Assembly (NCBI GenBank): GCA_041494885.1
Contig: JBGQBO010000007.1
Coordinates: 68,359-132,358 of the forward strand
DNA length: 64,000 nucleotides
Reading direction: 5' to 3'
Source: Terriglobia bacterium
Lineage (GTDB): Bacteria; Acidobacteriota; Terriglobia; JAIQFV01
The notes under the pieces: generated by a model
Told to the model about the DNA's origin: nothing
Databases searched by the model: none
The model's input: only the letters and a program-made list of their open reading frames with translations
Shown: piece after piece, positions 50,685 through 58,963 of the stretch
Position numbering within the stretch: position 1 is the stretch's first letter
Layout of the letters: every line of letters starts with the position of its first letter
Made by a program: the position numbers and the translations under genes

Positions 50685-50844
50685 GTTGATGCAGGAAAAC
50701 ATCGGATCCTTGTCACCTTGAAGCGGACAATCCTATTCATCCCTCAATTGGCCCTTTGCACCTCCGTGCAGCCTTCATGAGCCAATGGTATAATGCCCCT
50801 TCAATTCAGTTTACATGTGACTTTACAAGCATAAGGAGCCTCTC

Positions 50845-52320
50845 ATGAGTGCAACTTCGGTCCCCGCAATTCAAGCGCAGCGACTCTTCATCGCCGGTGA
50901 ATGGCGCGATGGCGCGAAGGGAAAGACGTTCGACACGATCAATCCGGCCACAGGCGAAGTCATCACCACCCTCGCCTCCGCGGAAAAAGAGGATGTCGAC
51001 GCAGCGGTGGCGGCGGCGCGCCAAGCCTTTGACGATCGTGAGAGCGCATGGAAGAAGATGAGCGCCGCTGACCGCGGCAAGCTGCTCTGGAGGATGGCGG
51101 ACCTGATTGAGAAGAACATCGACGAATTCGCGCGCCTCGAAACCCTGGACAACGGCAAGCCCATCTTTGAATCCCGGTATGTGGATATGCCCATGGTGGT
51201 TGAGGTGTTTCAGTATTACGCCGGCTGGGCGACGAAGATTCTCGGCGAGACGATCCCCGTCAAAGGGAACTATTTCAGTTACACCCTGCGCGAACCGGTC
51301 GGCGTCGTGGCGGCGATTACCCCGTGGAATTTTCCATTGCTCCTGGCAAGTTGGAAGATCGCTCCGGCATTGGCGGCAGGCAATACCGTCATTCACAAAC
51401 CTGCCTCTCTCACCCCCCTGACCGCGCTGAAACTGGCTGCGATTGCACAGGAAGCCGGTGTCCCACCCGGAGTGTTCAATGTGATTACCGGCAAGGGCGC
51501 AACCGTGGGGGATGCCCTGGTCGAGCACAAGGGTGTGGACAAGATCGCTTTTACAGGCTCGACCGAAGTCGGGCGCGAGGTGATGCGTAAGGCAGCGGGC
51601 ACAGTGAAAAGGGTCTCTCTCGAACTCGGAGGAAAGTCCCCCAACATCGTTTTCGCCGACGCCGACTTGGACGCCGCCGCCCGGGGCGCCTACCTGGGCA
51701 TCTTTTATGGGAAGGGTGAAGTCTGTGCTGCCGGTTCTCGCCTCTTTGTGGAGGAATCCGTTCACGATCAGTTGATGGAAAAGCTCATCGCCCGTACCAA
51801 GAAGTTGCAGCCGGCGGATCCCATGGACCCCAAGACCCGATTGGGGGCACTGGTCAGCGAGGGTCAATTGGATTCCGTGCTGCGCTACATCGAATCGGGA
51901 AAGGCGGAAGGAGGGCAGCTGGTTGCCGGTGGCCAACGGGTACTGGTCAATGGCAAGGGCAGCTTCCTCCAGCCAACGATTTTTGACCACGTTGATCCAC
52001 GCATGACCATCGCGCGCGATGAGATCTTCGGGCCCGTGCTCGCCACCCTTTCTTTCAAGGGCATGGACGAGGGATTGAGCCTGGCGAATGACACCCTTTA
52101 CGGCTTGGCCGCCGCCGTGTGGACACGCGATATCAAGAGAGCGCATCGCGCTGCCCGCGAGTTAAGGGCCGGCACCATCTGGATTAACACCTACAACGTC
52201 TATGATCCCACCATGCCTTTTGGGGGGTACAAACAATCCGGATTCGGACGCGAACTCGGCATGCAGGCGCTTGACTTGTACACCCAAACCAAAAGCGTCT
52301 GTGTTGACTTAAGTGAATGA
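50845..52320 (+). CDS. NAD(P)-dependent aldehyde dehydrogenase.
   Basis: 491-aa ORF with ITPWNFPL, catalytic Cys region GEVCAAGSR and ELGGKSP. Confidence 0.85.
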   Translation: MSATSVPAIQAQRLFIAGEWRDGAKGKTFDTINPATGEVITTLASAEKEDVDAAVAAARQAFDDRESAWKKMSAADRGKLLWRMADLIEKNIDEFARLETLDNGKPIFESRYVDMPMVVEVFQYYAGWATKILGETIPVKGNYFSYTLREPVGVVAAITPWNFPLLLASWKIAPALAAGNTVIHKPASLTPLTALKLAAIAQEAGVPPGVFNVITGKGATVGDALVEHKGVDKIAFTGSTEVGREVMRKAAGTVKRVSLELGGKSPNIVFADADLDAAARGAYLGIFYGKGEVCAAGSRLFVEESVHDQLMEKLIARTKKLQPADPMDPKTRLGALVSEGQLDSVLRYIESGKAEGGQLVAGGQRVLVNGKGSFLQPTIFDHVDPRMTIARDEIFGPVLATLSFKGMDEGLSLANDTLYGLAAAVWTRDIKRAHRAARELRAGTIWINTYNVYDPTMPFGGYKQSGFGRELGMQALDLYTQTKSVCVDLSE

Positions 52321-52554: not shown

Positions 52555-53139
52555 ATGAAGACTAGACTTGTCGCTGGAGTATTCTTTGTATCGCTTGGAC
52601 TGCTGTCCTCCACCTTTCTCTTCGCGCAGGCTTCCAACGCTTCTCGAGTGGGTGTGATTAACATGCAGACTGCCATTCTCGAGTCCGTCGAGGGAAAGAA
52701 GGCCGCGGAGACGTTGAAAGCCAAATACGATGCCAAAGCTGCCGAGCTTGAGAAGAAAAGGAAGGAAATCGAAGATTTGACCGCCGAGTTGAAGAAGCAG
52801 GAGAAGAACCTCAGCGAAGATGCCCAGGCGCAAAAAACAAAGGCCATCGACACTAAGCAGAAGGAGTTGACCCGCGCGGGCGAAGATGCAAGTAACGAGT
52901 TCAAGCAACTTCAGGACGAGACCATTAATACAATCGGCAACAAAATCCTGAGGATTATCCAAGCCTACGCTGCAGAACAAAGCTATTCTCTTGTGGTTGA
53001 CAGCTCCTCCGCCCAGAGTGGAGTGCTTTACTTCAGTCCGACTACCGACATTACGACTGAAATCATCCGCCGGTTTGATACACAATCCACCACGGCCTCG
53101 ACGCCCAAACCAACTGCACCCGCCACGCCGAAGAAGTAA
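52555..53139 (+). CDS. skp: OmpH/Skp-family periplasmic chaperone.
   Basis: 194-aa ORF with a signal peptide, then a Lys/Glu-rich coiled coil typical of Skp. Confidence 0.7.
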   Translation: MKTRLVAGVFFVSLGLLSSTFLFAQASNASRVGVINMQTAILESVEGKKAAETLKAKYDAKAAELEKKRKEIEDLTAELKKQEKNLSEDAQAQKTKAIDTKQKELTRAGEDASNEFKQLQDETINTIGNKILRIIQAYAAEQSYSLVVDSSSAQSGVLYFSPTTDITTEIIRRFDTQSTTASTPKPTAPATPKK

Positions 53140-53256: not shown

Positions 53257-54237
53257 ATGAATACCAGTTTTCGGGAGAGAAATTCAGTTCTTGCCTTTGT
53301 TTTATTCGTTGCAATGATAATCGCCACCGCGGTTCCGCTCCAGGCAGTGGATCCCCAGACCACGGCCCCTCCCAAGCCGGCGCCCGAAACCGCCAAGAAA
53401 CCGGAGCCCAAGGGATCCCCGACTCCCGGGACGGCAAAAACAGACTTCGATAAAACCAATCAACGACTGATTGATATTATCCAGAATGCCTTCACGAGTA
53501 GGATCCCGCCGAACACGGAAATATCGGTCGCTGGAAGAACTCCGTCCAAGCTGGGCGGGCTGGACTCGGTGACGCTTGAGTTTAAGAACGGGGCTAACAC
53601 AAACCGTCTCGACATTTTGGTGACCGCCGACAATAAGTTTGCCGTGGTGGGACAGATCCTTGATCTTTCGAAAGACCCCTTTGCCGAAAACGTCGACAAG
53701 ATCAGCATGACGAACTCACCCGTGTTCGGAAACAAAAACGCCAAGGTGACGATTGTCGAGTATTCTGATTTTCAGTGCCCGTATTGCAGCCAGGCCTATC
53801 GTACCGTCGAAGACGATGTGATGAAGCAATTTGGAGATAAGGTGAAGTTGGTCTACAAGAACTTTCCGCTGCCCGGCCACGCGTGGGCCGAGAGCGCGGC
53901 CATTGCCGGCCTATGTGCCAATCGACAAAGCAACGACGCCTTTTGGGTCCTCTACCGGAGCTTCTTTGAGAACCAGTCGGAAATTAAACCGGAAAACGTG
54001 AAAGCCAAGACCCTCGAATACGCGGCAAAGGCTCAAATCGATACCAAGAAATTTGAAGACTGCTACGATAACAAGCTAACGCTGCCGCAGGTCAAAGCCG
54101 AGATGACCGAGGCGCAGTCGCTGGGCATTACGGGGACCCCTTTGTTTGTGATCAACGGCCATCCGCTTTCCGGGGTCCAGCCATTCAGTTCCTTCCAGAA
54201 AGTGATTGAGGACGAATTGAAGAAGAACCCCAACTGA
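53257..54237 (+). CDS. Secreted DsbA-family thioredoxin-fold protein.
   Basis: Signal peptide, Pro-rich linker, and CPYC active site (SDFQCPYCSQ). Confidence 0.7.
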   Translation: MNTSFRERNSVLAFVLFVAMIIATAVPLQAVDPQTTAPPKPAPETAKKPEPKGSPTPGTAKTDFDKTNQRLIDIIQNAFTSRIPPNTEISVAGRTPSKLGGLDSVTLEFKNGANTNRLDILVTADNKFAVVGQILDLSKDPFAENVDKISMTNSPVFGNKNAKVTIVEYSDFQCPYCSQAYRTVEDDVMKQFGDKVKLVYKNFPLPGHAWAESAAIAGLCANRQSNDAFWVLYRSFFENQSEIKPENVKAKTLEYAAKAQIDTKKFEDCYDNKLTLPQVKAEMTEAQSLGITGTPLFVINGHPLSGVQPFSSFQKVIEDELKKNPN

Positions 54238-54563
54238 GGATGTATGCCATGATTTCAAGGACCTACTACGGAGCTTTTCGGGGGCAAAGGGAACGGTCCG
54301 GTTTTTCCTCGAAGGTTAAACAGAACGTGCCCTGGCGGTGAGACCCCCATGCATCCGCGCGTATAGGTCTCGAAACTCAGACCAGACCCTTTTTGCAGTC
54401 TCGGATTAGGGATGCTGAACCAGAACTCGAACCAACCGGCTCTGCTTCAGCGCTGCCTCCCCTCGAATCGGACTCCCCTATTAATTGGGCTTAAGATCCC
54501 GCCACAATCTTGACAAAGTCTTTTAGTCTACTTACCATCGGGGCAATACCTTAAGAGGCCATC

Positions 54564-56603
54564 GTGACTTCAGAATCCCAATTCCCCGAACCTGAACAGC
54601 AGGCAGAGCACACGGTGCGGGTGTGTGTTCCGGCGGGGTTTTTTGAGCGCCTCACTGCCGCGTGCGATTTCAGGCTGGTCACTCAGCCCGTGTTCGCCTT
54701 GCATGATCTCCGGCCTCAGTCTTCCGAGGTTGACCCCGTTCTCTTTTTTAAGATTGTTTTCCTGGAATACATCCTCGATGTCAGCAGTGATGCCCTGAGG
54801 AAGGAATTCACCGCCCATTCCGGATTGCGCCTTTTCTTGAATATTGACGATCGGACCGCCTTGCCTGCCCCCGAGGAGATTGTTCTCTTCAGGGGAAGGC
54901 TAGGGTGGCTGGGTTTCAAAAGCCTGCTGGATGAAGCCATCCGTGTGGCCAGGAAGAAGGGACTGCCGGAAGCGGACTGTGCAATCATGGAGAAGCGTTA
55001 TGACAATCCACTTGTTGAGGTCATCCGCGAAATGTCTCCTGGCTCACCCGCCACAATCACCCCCTCTTCCCCAGTCGGCCCCAATCCACCTTCAGCAGGA
55101 TTGCGTCACGTCTTCCAAACCGAGGATTTGATGCCTTTTTTCGGCGAACCAGCCCCCTCTGTACTCTCTGAGCAAGAGCCGGTGCGGCCACCCATAGGTC
55201 AAATCAAGACAGTGGAGAGTTCGGTCTACGTGGAGAGATCTCTTCATGCCGCAGCACGGATGTTGTGGGGAGATCAACCGGAGACAAACGAATCCTTGAG
55301 CAAACCTGGTTTCAAGTCTCAAACCACCCCCCCGAGTGGGTTCGGTCTACATACCCCGGCGCCGATCGACCCGCTCCACTCGATCATCGAATCTCTCGAT
55401 GGGGAGCGTGCGGAAAGGACCCCTAAAGGAGGGAAAGGAGAGCCCTCCGATTCTCTGAGCGACGCATCCACAAAGTCATCGAGGACCCAGCCCACCTCCG
55501 GACAGTCGATTACTCTCTCCAGTGCAGTCAGGCCTCCCGATGCCGAATTTGATCCACTCGGAATCGAATCCTTTTTCGACGGATTGTATTCAGCGCCCCC
55601 GGGAAGGGGATCTCAACTATCCGGGGAAACAGAATCCCAAGGGCACTTTGCGCCCCCTCTCCAGTTGAGTTCGAATGCAAAATCACCCGCCCCGCTTCGC
55701 GGAGCACCGGAACACGGGGCCTCCTCGTCCGAGTTCCGGATTTCTTATGATGAAACCCAGGCGAAAATGAACACGCATCAGGAAGTACGGAACTCATTGG
55801 GTACGTCTTCGGGTGACGGGAGTAAAGAGGGGTGGGAGAATTCTTCAGCCTGGGCACGACGGAAAAAATCTGAGGCTGAGGATCGGAGCGGGGAACAACC
55901 CGGAAGATTATTCGATTCGGATGGCGAGGGGGAGTCAACCCCGCAAGAGCAGGAGTGGAATTCTTCTTTAGCCGCGGAGGTGCAAACTCGCCTCACCCAA
56001 GCCGAAGAATCCTTTTCAAAAAGTGGAAAAGAGAGACTCTCCCTTTCCTCGATGGCGGCGTCCTCGCGGCCAAAACGATTCCTTTCAACCGAGTTGATCG
56101 TGAAGGGTCTCTACATTGCGGTACCGCTTCTGGTGTTGTTGGCAGTCTATGTGATGATCGGGGTCTTGAGGAATGCCCAGCCCGTGCCTGCGGCCGTCGA
56201 ATCGGCAAAGCCTGCCCCCTCCGCAGAAGGCAGTCGGAAAACCACGAATTCCCCTGTTCCACAAACTTCGCCAGCGCCGACGAATACCATAACCGGCCGA
56301 GGGTCGCCTTCACCCATCCCTCCAAAGCAGGAATCAAACATGCCCCTGCCAAAGGGAAAGCCCGCTTCCGAAACAGTGCGAATGCCAGGGACGACAGCGA
56401 GGACAACGAGCCGGGTGACTGAGAATCGTCCGCCCGTTCAATCCACAAACGGTTCTTCAGATGAAGTGAAGAAGTTAACATTGATTCGCCATCTTAAGCA
56501 ACAATACGGCCTGGACTTTCAACCCGGTCTCTACACTTACCGGGAACTGAAAGACATCAATGACCGGATGGAAGAAACCCTCAAGAAGGCCGTCAAACGA
56601 TGA
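54564..56603 (+). CDS. Hypothetical 679-aa protein. It has an N-terminal IS5/InsH-transposase N-terminal-like domain (DUF772-like), a long Pro/Ser-rich disordered region, one TM helix and a basic C-terminal tail. There is no DDE domain.
   Basis: GTG start with RBS aagagg. A TTGACA-N17-TACCAT promoter-like motif lies upstream. VDPVLFFKIVFLEYILDVSSDALRKEFTAHSGLRLFLNIDDRTALPAPEEIVLFRGRLGWLGFKSLLDEAIRVARKKGL matches the InsH_N pattern. The TM segment is LYIAVPLLVLLAVYVMIGVL. Confidence 0.5.
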   Translation: MTSESQFPEPEQQAEHTVRVCVPAGFFERLTAACDFRLVTQPVFALHDLRPQSSEVDPVLFFKIVFLEYILDVSSDALRKEFTAHSGLRLFLNIDDRTALPAPEEIVLFRGRLGWLGFKSLLDEAIRVARKKGLPEADCAIMEKRYDNPLVEVIREMSPGSPATITPSSPVGPNPPSAGLRHVFQTEDLMPFFGEPAPSVLSEQEPVRPPIGQIKTVESSVYVERSLHAAARMLWGDQPETNESLSKPGFKSQTTPPSGFGLHTPAPIDPLHSIIESLDGERAERTPKGGKGEPSDSLSDASTKSSRTQPTSGQSITLSSAVRPPDAEFDPLGIESFFDGLYSAPPGRGSQLSGETESQGHFAPPLQLSSNAKSPAPLRGAPEHGASSSEFRISYDETQAKMNTHQEVRNSLGTSSGDGSKEGWENSSAWARRKKSEAEDRSGEQPGRLFDSDGEGESTPQEQEWNSSLAAEVQTRLTQAEESFSKSGKERLSLSSMAASSRPKRFLSTELIVKGLYIAVPLLVLLAVYVMIGVLRNAQPVPAAVESAKPAPSAEGSRKTTNSPVPQTSPAPTNTITGRGSPSPIPPKQESNMPLPKGKPASETVRMPGTTARTTSRVTENRPPVQSTNGSSDEVKKLTLIRHLKQQYGLDFQPGLYTYRELKDINDRMEETLKKAVKR

Positions 56604-56679
56604 AGGGATCCCCCTTCAAACAGACGGGAAATGCAAAGCAACAGGACGGGCAATTCACAGTCAGTGCGAAAGCCGTTTC

Positions 56680-56730
56680 TCGATCAGATTTCAAGATCTG
56701 AAATTTCAGATTTGAGATCAGGCACTGCTT
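56680..56730. terminator. Cluster of overlapping perfect palindromes between convergent genes (candidate bidirectional terminator or hairpin).
   Basis: tcgatcagatttcaagatctgaaatttcagatttgagatcagg contains ATCTGAAA|TTTCAGAT (a 16-bp perfect palindrome) and cagat...atctg. Confidence 0.35.
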
Positions 56731-56923
56731 CGAAACGGGGTTAAAGATCAGCGCCGATGAGGGTGCTTTGAGCAGATCCAAAGTCCGGAACTCTGACGGG
56801 AGATCGCACCTGCAGGAAAAGAGATTTTGAAGTTTTTACTTATTCAGTCCAGTCCTCTCGAGATCTTCCTCCCACCGATTGGGAGAGGGCGTGTTTACCG
56901 AGGTACTGGGTTCGGAATTCGGG

Positions 56924-58963
56924 TTAAGTCAAAGAATCTTCCACGAGTTCCACCACATCGAGCATTTGTATCGTTTCTTCTGCGTTTTTTGCCTTCACGC
57001 CATCGCTGAGCATAATCATGCAAAACGGGCAGGACACGGCGATGGCGTCCGGGTGCGTCTCCATAGACTGTTCCACTCGAAGATGGCTCACCCTCTTGTC
57101 CTGGGGTTCTTCCATCCACATCCAGCCTCCCCCACCCCCGCAGCACATCCCGGTCTGCTTGTGACGTTCCATTTCCTGTAGCGTTGCGCCGGGAATGCGG
57201 GTCAGAATCTCCCGCGGAGAGTCATAGATTTCATTGTAGCGGCCATAGTAGCAGGAATCATGATACGTCACCCGCAGGGGCTTGGTTATCTCGCTGCGGA
57301 GTTTGAGCTTGCCCTTTTCGATAAGATCAGAGATCAACTCTGCCGCATGGATCACCTCATAGTTCCCGCCGAATTGAGGGTACTCATTCTTGAAGGTGTT
57401 ATAGCAGTGCGGACAGTTGACAATAATCTTCTTCACCCCGTACTTGCTGAATAGTCCGATGGCATGCTCGACCATGTTCTGGAACAAGTACTCGTTTCCC
57501 AGGCGCCGTGCCGTCTCGCCATTGCAGGGTTCCTCGGTGCCGAGTATGGCGAACTTGACTCCGGCCTTCTTTAAGATTTTCGTAAAGGCGATGGTGACTT
57601 TCTTGTTCCGGTCATCGAACGCCCCGGCACACCCGACGAAGTAGAGGTATTCCGCCTCCGGATGTTGCGAGATCAGGGGGACATCGAGACCCACGGCCCA
57701 GTCCGCTCGCTTGTGGGAACCCAGGCCCCAGGGATTGCTGTGCGTCTCCATTCCATTAAAAGCGCGGATGATTTCCGGGGGAAACCGGGCTTCATCCAGC
57801 ACGAGGTGGCGCCGCATGTCCACGATCTTGTCCACGTACTCGATCAGCACGGGACACGCCTCTTCGCAGGCACGGCAAGTTGTGCAAGCCCACAGCACTT
57901 CATCGTGGATCAATGTCTCGCCGACAATGTTTTCTCCGACCTCCCCTTCCTCCCTTGTTCGTTTCTTCTCGATCATCTCGCGCTGGTTCGTGTAGAGGTA
58001 ATCTCTCAAATCGAGAAGGAGCTGCCGCGGGGCCAATGCCTTCCCACTCAGGGTGGCGGGGCAATGCGAAGTGCAGCGGCCGCACTCGGTGCAACTGAAC
58101 ATGTCGAGGTCCTGCTTCCAGGTAAACTGGCTGATGTGCGATGTGCCGAAGGCCTCGGAATTCTCCAGATCCATTTTGCTGAGCGCCCCGGCGGGCTCGA
58201 GCTTGCGGAAAAACACATTCGGGATCGAAGTAACAATATGGAAATGCTTGGACCGAGGAAGGAGATTCAGGAAGACGAGGACCACCAGGTTATGAACCCA
58301 CCAGGCCCCCTGGCTGATCCACCGGGCCCATTGAGGACCCAGGGGAGCCAGCACATAAGTGCTGACCAGTCCACTGATCGGTTCCCATCGACGCTCCGCT
58401 TCCACCCAGCGGTCGCCCGCCAGGAACAAGAGACGACCGCCGTCATACAACAAGCCTCCCGCCATGATGGCAAAAATGAACAGGAGAATCAGCGGGCCTT
58501 CCCAATGCGACTGACCCGCGAGGCGGGATTCAGCCGGACGAAACCCCTGAAGGCGCTGGGGATGAGAGATCTTCCATCGATACAACCCCACCAGCGCGGC
58601 CCCCATCACCACCACCTCCATCAAGTCTCTGAGAAAGAGAAAGGGACCGCCCCACCCCTGGGGCGAAAAACCCGGAACAAAGAAGTGTGGCGAGAAGGCC
58701 CGCCCGAACATGGTGAGAATTTGCAGACCCAGAATGACGAATCCCCAGAAGATAAAAAAATGCATCCAGCCGGCAGGCTGCTCCCCTACCACAAATTTCT
58801 TTTGACCTAAGGCGTAAACCAACACCGCCTTCAGTCGCTGTCCCGGATGGTCCCAGCGGTCAGCAGGCCGGGCAGCCTTCAGTAGACGAAATCGGTTCAG
58901 GACGGTGCGCAGGAAGTATCCCGCCGCAGCCAATACAACCGCGGCAAAGATGAGAGGGGTCAT
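56924..58963 (-). CDS. Fused membrane heme-b (NarI/HdrE-like) plus HdrD/DsrK-like Fe-S, CCG-domain protein.
   Basis: 679-aa ORF. The N-terminus is a roughly 5-TM NarI-like domain. It is followed by two 4Fe-4S motifs (CTECGRCTSHCP, CTTCRACEEACP) and two CCG-type Cys-rich motifs (CPHCYNTF.., MCCGGGGG). Confidence 0.7.
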   Translation of the reverse strand: MTPLIFAAVVLAAAGYFLRTVLNRFRLLKAARPADRWDHPGQRLKAVLVYALGQKKFVVGEQPAGWMHFFIFWGFVILGLQILTMFGRAFSPHFFVPGFSPQGWGGPFLFLRDLMEVVVMGAALVGLYRWKISHPQRLQGFRPAESRLAGQSHWEGPLILLFIFAIMAGGLLYDGGRLLFLAGDRWVEAERRWEPISGLVSTYVLAPLGPQWARWISQGAWWVHNLVVLVFLNLLPRSKHFHIVTSIPNVFFRKLEPAGALSKMDLENSEAFGTSHISQFTWKQDLDMFSCTECGRCTSHCPATLSGKALAPRQLLLDLRDYLYTNQREMIEKKRTREEGEVGENIVGETLIHDEVLWACTTCRACEEACPVLIEYVDKIVDMRRHLVLDEARFPPEIIRAFNGMETHSNPWGLGSHKRADWAVGLDVPLISQHPEAEYLYFVGCAGAFDDRNKKVTIAFTKILKKAGVKFAILGTEEPCNGETARRLGNEYLFQNMVEHAIGLFSKYGVKKIIVNCPHCYNTFKNEYPQFGGNYEVIHAAELISDLIEKGKLKLRSEITKPLRVTYHDSCYYGRYNEIYDSPREILTRIPGATLQEMERHKQTGMCCGGGGGWMWMEEPQDKRVSHLRVEQSMETHPDAIAVSCPFCMIMLSDGVKAKNAEETIQMLDVVELVEDSLT

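Follow-up and report, generated by a model that had tools for sequence, protein, structure and literature searches.

An IS1182-like transposase region probably domesticated in a predicted membrane-tethered protein of uncultured Terriglobia

We analysed a stretch of 64,000 nucleotides from a Terriglobia bacterium (assembly GCA_041494885.1, contig JBGQBO010000007.1, positions 68,359 to 132,358; hereafter "the window") and focus on the open reading frame (ORF) at 54564-56603, whose product and relatives are labelled hypothetical in every source. We are highly confident that this ORF is a domesticated host gene derived from a transposase, and its product is very likely a bitopic inner-membrane protein with the N-terminus in the cytoplasm. 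The protein has an N-terminal domain of about 130 residues (the N-domain), which is homologous to the region preceding the catalytic core of IS1182-type transposases, followed by a disordered linker of about 350 residues, one transmembrane (TM) helix, a Pro/Thr/Ser-rich spacer, and a helical C-terminal module (C-module) of about 45 residues (Table 1). The best explanation we can offer for the whole is a transposase-derived, membrane-tethered DNA-binding transducer. We propose it tentatively, at somewhat less than an even chance.

Homology of the N-terminal domain to transposases

The only Pfam family matched by the protein is PF05598 (DUF772), with E = 3.1e-4 over positions 4-72 of the 74 in the profile. 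A preliminary description made from the sequence alone had anticipated this match, which is indeed found, but its score (21.1 bits) is lower than the gathering score of the family (23.1 bits). Seven of the nine members of the protein family described here match PF05598 at E < 0.1 (best 4.1e-5). The NCBIfam model of the IS1182 transposase (NF033551) matched the N-terminal region weakly (positions 51-135 of 488, 20.5 bits), and the protein did not reach the family cut-off of 270 bits. A profile made from residues 1-159 of four members served as the query in an exhaustive HMMER search of 1.84 billion cluster representatives. The search retrieved the family's own six clusters (614-685 aa, E ≤ 3e-26) and, after a wide gap, around 31 weak matches (E from 5e-7 to 8e-4). 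PF05598 was present in 31 of the 33 weak matches that were scanned, most of which also had DDE_Tnp_1 or DDE_Tnp_1_6, and the matches outside the family were genuine transposases of the DUF772 plus DDE type. When eight of the retrieved transposases were named with NCBIfam, all of them matched best the IS1182 model, and three exceeded its curated cut-off.

Aligned profile to profile with these transposases by hhalign, the N-terminus of the family reached a probability of 99.0% and E = 6.4e-18 over 129 columns (query residues 15-143). The homology therefore covers the whole pre-catalytic region, well past the 74 residues of the Pfam model, even if the identity to the nearest transposases is only 18-27%. 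Judging from these profile comparisons, the homology of the DUF772 region to transposases is real and beyond chance. The preliminary description had assigned the first 160 residues or so to an InsH/IS5-type DUF772 domain. The profile searches and hhalign uphold a DUF772 region of transposase type, but not a donor of the InsH/IS5 type proper; on sequence similarity, the donor lineage is better called IS1182-like (IS5-related). A word-indexed homologue search with the 159 N-terminal residues alone returned zero matches, not even the family itself, and PDB sequence searches with the profiles of the N-domain and the C-module gave only chance-level matches. Two proteins, P0010 (1301 aa) and P0026 (736 aa), matched the N-domain profile in 8-12 short stretches and hold snippets of many Pfam families that have nothing to do with one another (SPRY, Prefoldin, NusA_N, GAIN_A, and others). 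Both have the appearance of artificial or chimeric concatenations and not of natural proteins, and were left out of the alignments.

The similarity extends to the beginning of the catalytic core. In a 40-sequence alignment, the I-(L/M)-E-(K/R)-R of the family stands opposite the I-x-D-(A/S)-T of the transposases. Glu143 is invariant in the nine members, and 90% of the transposases have an Asp in the same column. We take this Asp to be the first residue of the DDE triad (N2 region), as in the IS4 and IS5 families. The Pfam domain DDE_Tnp_1 starts three to four residues before it in two of the transposases (P0018 and P0014). The catalytic regions of DDE enzymes are described by the N2/N3/C1 scheme (PMC3281130). 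Past I-M-E-K-R the sequence of the family turns low-complexity. In the light of this alignment, I-M-E-K-R is what remains of the first DDE-core motif, with Asp changed to Glu.

We modelled the N-domain with AlphaFold2. The 40-sequence alignment, which includes 31 transposase N-termini, produced a model with a predicted local distance difference test (pLDDT) score of 87.9 and a predicted template modelling (pTM) score of 0.82, while an alignment of only four sequences gave an unusable model (pLDDT 46). Seven helices, among them a long one at residues 103-131, make up the confident model together with a two-stranded sheet in which residues 17-20 pair with residues 151-154. The predicted fold is thus compact and helical, closed by a small sheet. 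We found no solved structure for DUF772.

Architecture and conservation of a host gene

The ORF, on the forward strand with 679 residues, is exactly where the preliminary description had placed it, and the outline given there of the remaining protein is largely borne out. The low-complexity stretch of about 330 residues is supported by composition and by the charge-hydropathy estimate, hydropathy locates the single TM helix at residues 516-535, and a Pro/Thr-rich stretch follows at residues 541-635 (P 18%, S 14%, T 14%). What had been called a basic tail is indeed a C-terminus rich in Lys, Leu, and Arg, but it is really a conserved helical module, more strongly constrained by purifying selection than any other part of the protein. 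The cytoplasmic linker (S 17%, P 10%, E 10%, G 9% at residues 161-505) is classed as disordered by the charge-hydropathy boundary and has numerous indels among orthologues (residues 157-505). It contains two conserved motifs. The second, with the consensus DPLG(I/L)(E/D)x(F/Y) across the nine clusters of orthologues, is a candidate short linear interaction motif.

A single hydrophobic segment is found in every one of the nine members, and none of them has a signal-like N-terminus. Three residues of the TM helix are invariant (Tyr517, Pro521, and Ile532). In the nine members the flank of the helix has two to four Lys and Arg residues on the N-terminal side versus zero to two on the C-terminal side. 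According to the positive-inside rule, the more basic flank is cytoplasmic. The N-terminal flank being the more basic, the topology should be N-in/C-out, with about 515 residues predicted in the cytoplasm and about 144 in the periplasm. The spacer after the helix (residues 536-633) is also on the disordered side of the charge-hydropathy estimate. The C-module has the consensus KKLxLIRHLxxxYxLDxQPxxYxYxELKDIxxRLExxxKK, with a helix-loop-amphipathic-helix pattern, and matches neither Pfam nor PDB entries nor any known sensory domain. It is unique to the family; outside of it we found it only in mis-called fragments of family genes. We considered a small stand-alone C-module protein and rejected it: the matches of 49-72 aa are fragments of full-length family genes missed by the gene callers.

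The preliminary description had suggested looking for homologues with the same fusion. There are nine clusters of orthologues, with 24-86% identity to the protein of the window, all from metagenome-assembled genomes (MAGs) of uncultured Terriglobia/Acidobacteriota, and they keep the whole architecture, i.e., the N-domain, the second linker motif, the TM helix, and the C-module are common to all nine. The gene is present in four of 185,579 species-representative genomes, all of them MAGs of the same uncultured group, at one locus each. Two DNA scans of metagenome contigs provided no confirmed relatives. The codon-level comparison with the 86% orthologue gave a ratio of nonsynonymous to synonymous substitution rates (dN/dS) of 0.10 in the N-domain, 0.17 in the TM region, and 0.04 in the C-module, the lowest of all, for 0.36-0.62 in the linkers and 0.32 in the whole gene.

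Several observations concern the annotation of these genes. At one locus (L012:4363-6204; GCA_020073085.1, JAIQFV010000008.1) an intact ORF of 614 aa, in a single frame, with no Ns and 99.7% identical to P0004, is annotated only as fragments of 118 and 68 aa. At another (L006:193-265) the gene call begins at a TTG 72 nt upstream, beyond the conserved promoter. The 90% cluster of the protein of the window includes variants of 660 and 490 aa. Since automated callers fragment this low-complexity, GTG-initiated gene, families of this kind are probably under-counted in protein databases.

The gene has none of the features that define an IS1182/IS5 element, i.e., a DDE core, terminal inverted repeats (TIRs), and multiple copies or a variable location. 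We searched for a DDE domain in the protein, in eight alternative-frame ORFs of the region, and in the nine family members, and found none, in line with the lack of a downstream DDE domain noted in the preliminary description. No inverted repeats bracket the gene, as had also been noted; the best pair has 26 nt with 73% complementarity, and one of its arms lies within the ORF. A six-frame scan of the window with a profile of the DUF772 region identified only this ORF (next match at E = 0.57). With no core, no ends, and no sign of mobility, the product stands outside the IS1182/IS5 transposases. The gene is fixed, single-copy, syntenic, and under purifying selection. This is why we call it domesticated, as the preliminary description had proposed, and not a decayed insertion sequence (IS).

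The order of the neighbouring genes is conserved: Aldedh, OmpH/Skp, DsbA-like thioredoxin, the target gene, then a convergent Fe-S/CCG oxidoreductase, SDR, and Usp. This neighbourhood is kept in loci where the proteins of the family have only 27-46% identity. The DsbA-like gene is immediately upstream and on the same strand wherever upstream sequence exists (L001, L002, L005, L007, L011, L012, and L004). In the last of these, the most divergent (24% identity), the downstream neighbours differ and the DsbA/DsbC-like gene still adjoins the target upstream.

The sigma-70-like promoter and the ribosome-binding site (RBS) ascribed to the gene in the preliminary description are present and conserved across the orthologous loci. 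In an alignment of seven loci, TTGACA is invariant and accompanied by the flanking GnCAnA and AAGT, a 17-nt spacer, and TTAnnAT. The exact extended -35 10-mer TTGACAAAGT is found upstream of the gene, a single time per locus, in 11 of 13 loci, and the 64 kb of the window contain one copy, which rules it out as a general promoter feature of the window. The non-ATG start is also conserved, as GTG in six of the seven aligned loci and as TTG in the other. The conservation of the promoter is far above what the identity of the proteins would lead one to expect, and fits tight regulation or auto-regulation. In most orthologous loci (L002, L004, L005, L006, and L007; alignment A5) the DsbA-like gene is followed by a GC-rich hairpin and a T-run, e.g., AAGCGGGTCCGG...CGGGGCCCGCTTTGTTTTTT in L002; the counterpart in the window is less clear. 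These terminator-like hairpins suggest that the DsbA-like gene is transcribed separately from the target, in spite of the conserved adjacency of the two. Having its own conserved promoter after the hairpin and T-run, the target gene is therefore a transcription unit of its own.

Table 1. Features of the target gene, its product, and two upstream neighbours. Nucleotide coordinates are those of the window.
Feature	Coordinates	Strand	Evidence or remarks
Whole ORF	54564..56603	+	GTG start, 679 aa plus stop
Sigma-70-type promoter, TTGACA (54510-54515), 17-nt spacer, TACCAT (54533-54538)	54510..54538	+	Consensus scan, 10/12 matches
RBS AAGAGG, 5 nt before GTG	54553..54558	+	Sequence; purine-rich AAAGAGG-like block in the same register in orthologues
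N-terminal domain, aa 15-156, predicted cytoplasmic	54606..55031	+	hhalign, reciprocal retrieval, AlphaFold2, dN/dS 0.10
PF05598 (DUF772) segment, aa 55-123	54726..54932	+	Pfam match
Putative relic of DDE-core start, I-M-E-K-R, aa 141-145	54984..54998	+	40-sequence alignment A7, column statistics
Low-complexity linker, aa 157-505, predicted cytoplasmic and disordered	55032..56078	+	Composition, charge-hydropathy, indels, dN/dS 0.49
Linker motif 1, E-R-S-L-H-A-A-A-R-M-L-W-G-D-Q-P, aa 224-239	55233..55280	+	In 7/9 members
Linker motif 2, D-P-L-G-I-E-S-F-F-D, aa 330-339	55551..55580	+	In 9/9 members, displaced in P0008
TM helix LYIAVPLLVLLAVYVMIGVL, aa 516-535	56109..56168	+	Hydropathy, flank charges; dN/dS 0.17
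Juxtamembrane segment and Pro/Thr/Ser-rich linker, aa 536-633, predicted periplasmic	56169..56462	+	Composition, dN/dS 0.36
C-terminal module, aa 634-679, predicted periplasmic	56463..56600	+	Invariant columns, dN/dS 0.04
DsbA/DsbC-like periplasmic thioredoxin gene (context)	53257..54237	+	Pfam, synteny
Skp/OmpH gene (context), upstream of the DsbA-like gene	52555-53139		Pfam

Other elements were noticed around the gene. The DsbA-like neighbour (53257-54237; L004:2-1123) has a CPYC active site and an N-terminal extension of about 150 residues, which in L004 scores as the DsbC_N dimerisation domain. This suggests a DsbC/DsbG-like isomerase that forms, with Skp, an envelope-folding pair travelling with the target gene. 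A hairpin with a 7-bp stem and a 4-nt loop (TGAAGGG-ATCC-CCCTTCA, 56601-56618) starts at the stop codon of the target and is identical in L008, the orthologue with 86% identity. With no T-run after the stem, it does not qualify as a canonical intrinsic terminator. In the intergenic stretch that separates the target from the convergent Fe-S/CCG gene there is a perfect 16-nt palindrome, ATCTGAAATTTCAGAT (56696-56711), inside an AT-rich run of AGATTTCA-like units (within ~56680-56725), with one mismatch in L008; L001 has a related GAAATTTCAGATTT in its downstream spacer and a similar TCTCAAATTTCAAAT in its upstream spacer. The palindrome may act as a terminator in both directions, serve as a site for a protein, or be a small repeat element. 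An Rfam scan of 54000-57000 gave no match. Long antisense ORFs of 380-446 aa (50806-52146 on the reverse strand, 57662-58810 on the forward strand, and similar ones) overlap the aldehyde dehydrogenase and Fe-S/CCG genes, and are most likely non-coding shadows of these real genes.

Proposed function and alternative explanations

We propose that the gene arose when the 5' part of an IS1182-type DDE transposase gene was captured in an uncultured Terriglobia lineage. The captured part would be the whole pre-catalytic N-terminal region, through the motif with the first catalytic Asp, and the catalytic core would have been lost. In DDE transposases, the region N-terminal to the core is generally a TIR-binding helix-turn-helix (HTH) domain (PMC8477213). 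As the most likely mechanism, the present protein would be a membrane-tethered nucleic-acid-binding signal transducer, following the one-component logic of ToxR and CadC. On the envelope side, a signal or a partner would be received or held by the periplasmic module and the unusually conserved TM helix. In the cytoplasm, specific DNA at the periphery of the nucleoid would be the ligand of the former IS-end-binding domain, carried on its flexible tether. The bound sites could include the strongly conserved promoter of the gene itself, and partners would be recruited through the two conserved linear motifs of the tether. An argument for DNA binding is that the family keeps most of the conserved basic positions of the transposase domain, i.e., five of eight (R29, K63, R89, R110, and K/R112). 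For the product as a DNA-binding regulator or tether, a part of the proposal in which DNA binding and the regulatory role are inferred, our confidence is at best equal to that in the whole and perhaps a little lower.

Several observations weigh against the proposal. The GRP motif of the transposases (Gly 100%, Arg 84%, Pro 71%) is x-S-S in every family member; if GRP contacts DNA, this change may have abolished or modified the binding by the N-domain. All nine members have a mildly acidic N-domain, with isoelectric points (pI) of 4.8-6.7, compared with a mean of 7.6 (range 4.7-10.1) for the N-terminal segments of transposases. A fold search with the N-domain gave no significant match to a solved DNA-binding fold, the score for PF05598 is below its gathering score, and the evidence for the putative DNA binding by the N-domain is indirect. 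The predicted periplasmic part is tiny for a sensor. The functional tie to the Skp and DsbA-like genes rests on conserved adjacency only, and hairpins and a separate promoter intervene. Finally, an operator is not demonstrated at the promoter: its spacer varies in three of the seven loci, which is why we claim none there.

A more specific form of the proposal is a transmembrane transcription factor, in which an envelope signal would control the former IS1182 end-recognition domain at operators derived from IS ends or mimicking them. The signal might act via regulated proteolysis at the Pro-containing TM helix. We regard this version as possible but doubtful.

The main rival to the proposal, of the same doubtful standing, is a membrane scaffold or hub akin to RodZ or ZipA, in which the N-domain would now serve as a protein-interaction or oligomerisation module that does not bind DNA. 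RodZ has a membrane-anchored HTH domain that binds the protein MreB instead of DNA. In the scaffold, the tether with its two linear motifs would recruit cytoplasmic partners to an envelope site set by the TM helix and the periplasmic module. The uniform acidity of the N-domain, the loss of GRP and of three of the eight basic columns, and the lack of a significant match to a DNA-binding fold all suit this explanation. So does the conservation of LHAAAxMLW and DPLGIExFF inside an otherwise unconstrained linker, which is typical of linear interaction motifs, and that of the TM helix, which exceeds the needs of a passive anchor (invariant Tyr, Pro, and Ile; dN/dS 0.17). Yet, five of the eight basic positions are kept, and the fold core is conserved enough for the alignment with transposases to drive a confident model. 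A scaffold also has no identifiable partner here, and the protein has no Pfam match to domains of the RodZ, ZipA, or FimV types.

Alternatively, the protein could be a host inhibitor of transposition, recognising IS1182-type ends or co-assembling with active transposase, sequestering them at the membrane, and thereby dampening the IS. In several IS families, truncated N-terminal products of the transposase act as repressors. What the protein retains is precisely the pre-catalytic part, which carries end recognition in DDE transposases (PMC8477213), and the column of the catalytic Asp is Glu in all members. We consider this improbable, because the low identity to extant transposases (18-27%) implies an ancient divergence from current IS and because the periplasmic module is left unexplained, as are the conservation of the TM helix and the fixed neighbourhood. 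Furthermore, we found no IS1182/IS5 copy in the window and no match to the models of defence systems.

The direction of descent could also be the reverse, the N-domain being an old host domain shared with the IS1182/IS5 transposases and not derived from them. Homology by itself has no direction, and the identity is low. However, the family is confined to a few Terriglobia MAGs (six clusters in the 1.84 billion representatives and four of the 185,579 species genomes), every match outside the family is a transposase, and the alignment extends beyond the DUF772 model to the opening motif of the DDE core, an extension that can be understood only as the remnant of a transposase gene. We find this even less probable than an inhibitor. 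The weak Pfam score, and the fragmented or mis-started calls of this low-complexity gene in some assemblies, could be expected of a decayed IS or a chance fusion ORF with no function, but we give this practically no credence: a decayed IS is ruled out by the lack of a DDE remnant, of bracketing inverted repeats, and of a second copy in the window, and nine clusters, down to 24% identity, have an intact ORF of 614-685 aa with the same modules, strong purifying selection on three of them, and conserved promoter, start, and synteny.

Comparison with known systems

The closest relatives of the N-domain are the IS1182-family transposases (PF05598 with DDE_Tnp_1 or DDE_Tnp_1_6; NF033551), with which the family shares the full pre-catalytic region (residues 15-143) and the first motif of the DDE core. 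The family differs from them by having neither DDE core nor inverted repeats, by being single-copy and syntenic, by the loss of GRP, and by the change of Asp to Glu. It adds the disordered linker, the TM helix, and the predicted periplasmic module.

In its layout the protein resembles ToxR, CadC, and TcpP: all have, here by prediction, a cytoplasmic N-terminal DNA-binding domain (putative in our protein), which a linker and a single TM helix connect to a periplasmic C-terminal part. ToxR, CadC, and TcpP have a winged helix of the OmpR/PhoB type and a tether of tens of residues. Here the tether has about 350 residues, the periplasmic part is a helical module of 45 residues and not a sensor domain, and we found no Trans_reg_C or other HTH family in the protein (Pfam, E up to 10). 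By analogy, one-component signalling logic is the working model that fits best. In RodZ, an HTH-like cytoplasmic N-domain is followed by a single TM helix, then by a periplasmic spacer rich in Pro and Thr, and finally by a small C-terminal module. The target protein has the same succession, with a helical N-domain, but differs in the longer cytoplasmic linker, in the transposase-derived domain, and in the lack of matches to an Xre-type HTH or to DUF4115. Pfam and NCBIfam revealed no anti-sigma domain (zf-HC2/RskA type), and no sigma-factor gene is adjacent among the neighbours examined. Lacking the defining domains of the ToxR/CadC, RodZ, and anti-sigma families, the protein stands outside all three. 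In its way of working it would at most resemble a bitopic regulator or scaffold tethered to the membrane. The defence models of PADLOC-DB had no match to three family members.

The preliminary description knew of no family with such an architecture, and we likewise found none in Pfam, NCBIfam, PADLOC, PDB sequence and fold searches, or the literature, including publications on DUF772, on bacterial domesticated transposases, on the N-terminal function of IS1182/IS5, and on exaptation with a membrane. If the N-domain still binds DNA, the protein would represent a new class of membrane-tethered DNA-binding protein and show that the end-binding domains of IS can seed regulatory proteins. If, more specifically, the doubtful reading as a transmembrane factor were true, this would be the first described prokaryotic DDE-transposase DNA-binding domain in one-component signalling from envelope to genome. 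The scope is that of a tiny family of uncultured, soil-type Terriglobia with an inferred function.

The domestication of parts of transposases into host regulators is well documented in eukaryotes, and other bacterial cases belong to lineages related to TnpB or Cas. One publication calls TnpA-REP (RAYT) "the first prokaryotic domesticated transposase" (PMC8266576), an indication that not many bacterial cases are on record. RAYTs are, like the target gene, single-copy, vertically inherited derivatives of IS transposases retained by the host. However, they are active Y1 enzymes (IS200/IS605-type) acting on REP sequences, whereas here a non-catalytic N-terminal region of DDE type is joined to a membrane anchor. 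Among eukaryotes, Harbinger elements are related to IS5. ALP1 and ALP2 are domesticated proteins derived from Harbinger (PMC7282668), i.e., another exaptation of an IS5-superfamily transposase to a host protein with loss of transposition. They differ from the protein described here in keeping an inactive nuclease-like domain and in working in chromatin complexes of eukaryotes, with no membrane anchor. The combination of transposase-domain exaptation with a bitopic membrane-tethered protein is thus a rare bacterial case. It offers a clean bacterial example of the DDE type, in which only the non-catalytic N-terminal region is retained, linked to a membrane anchor, fixed at a single place in the chromosome, and subject to strong selection.

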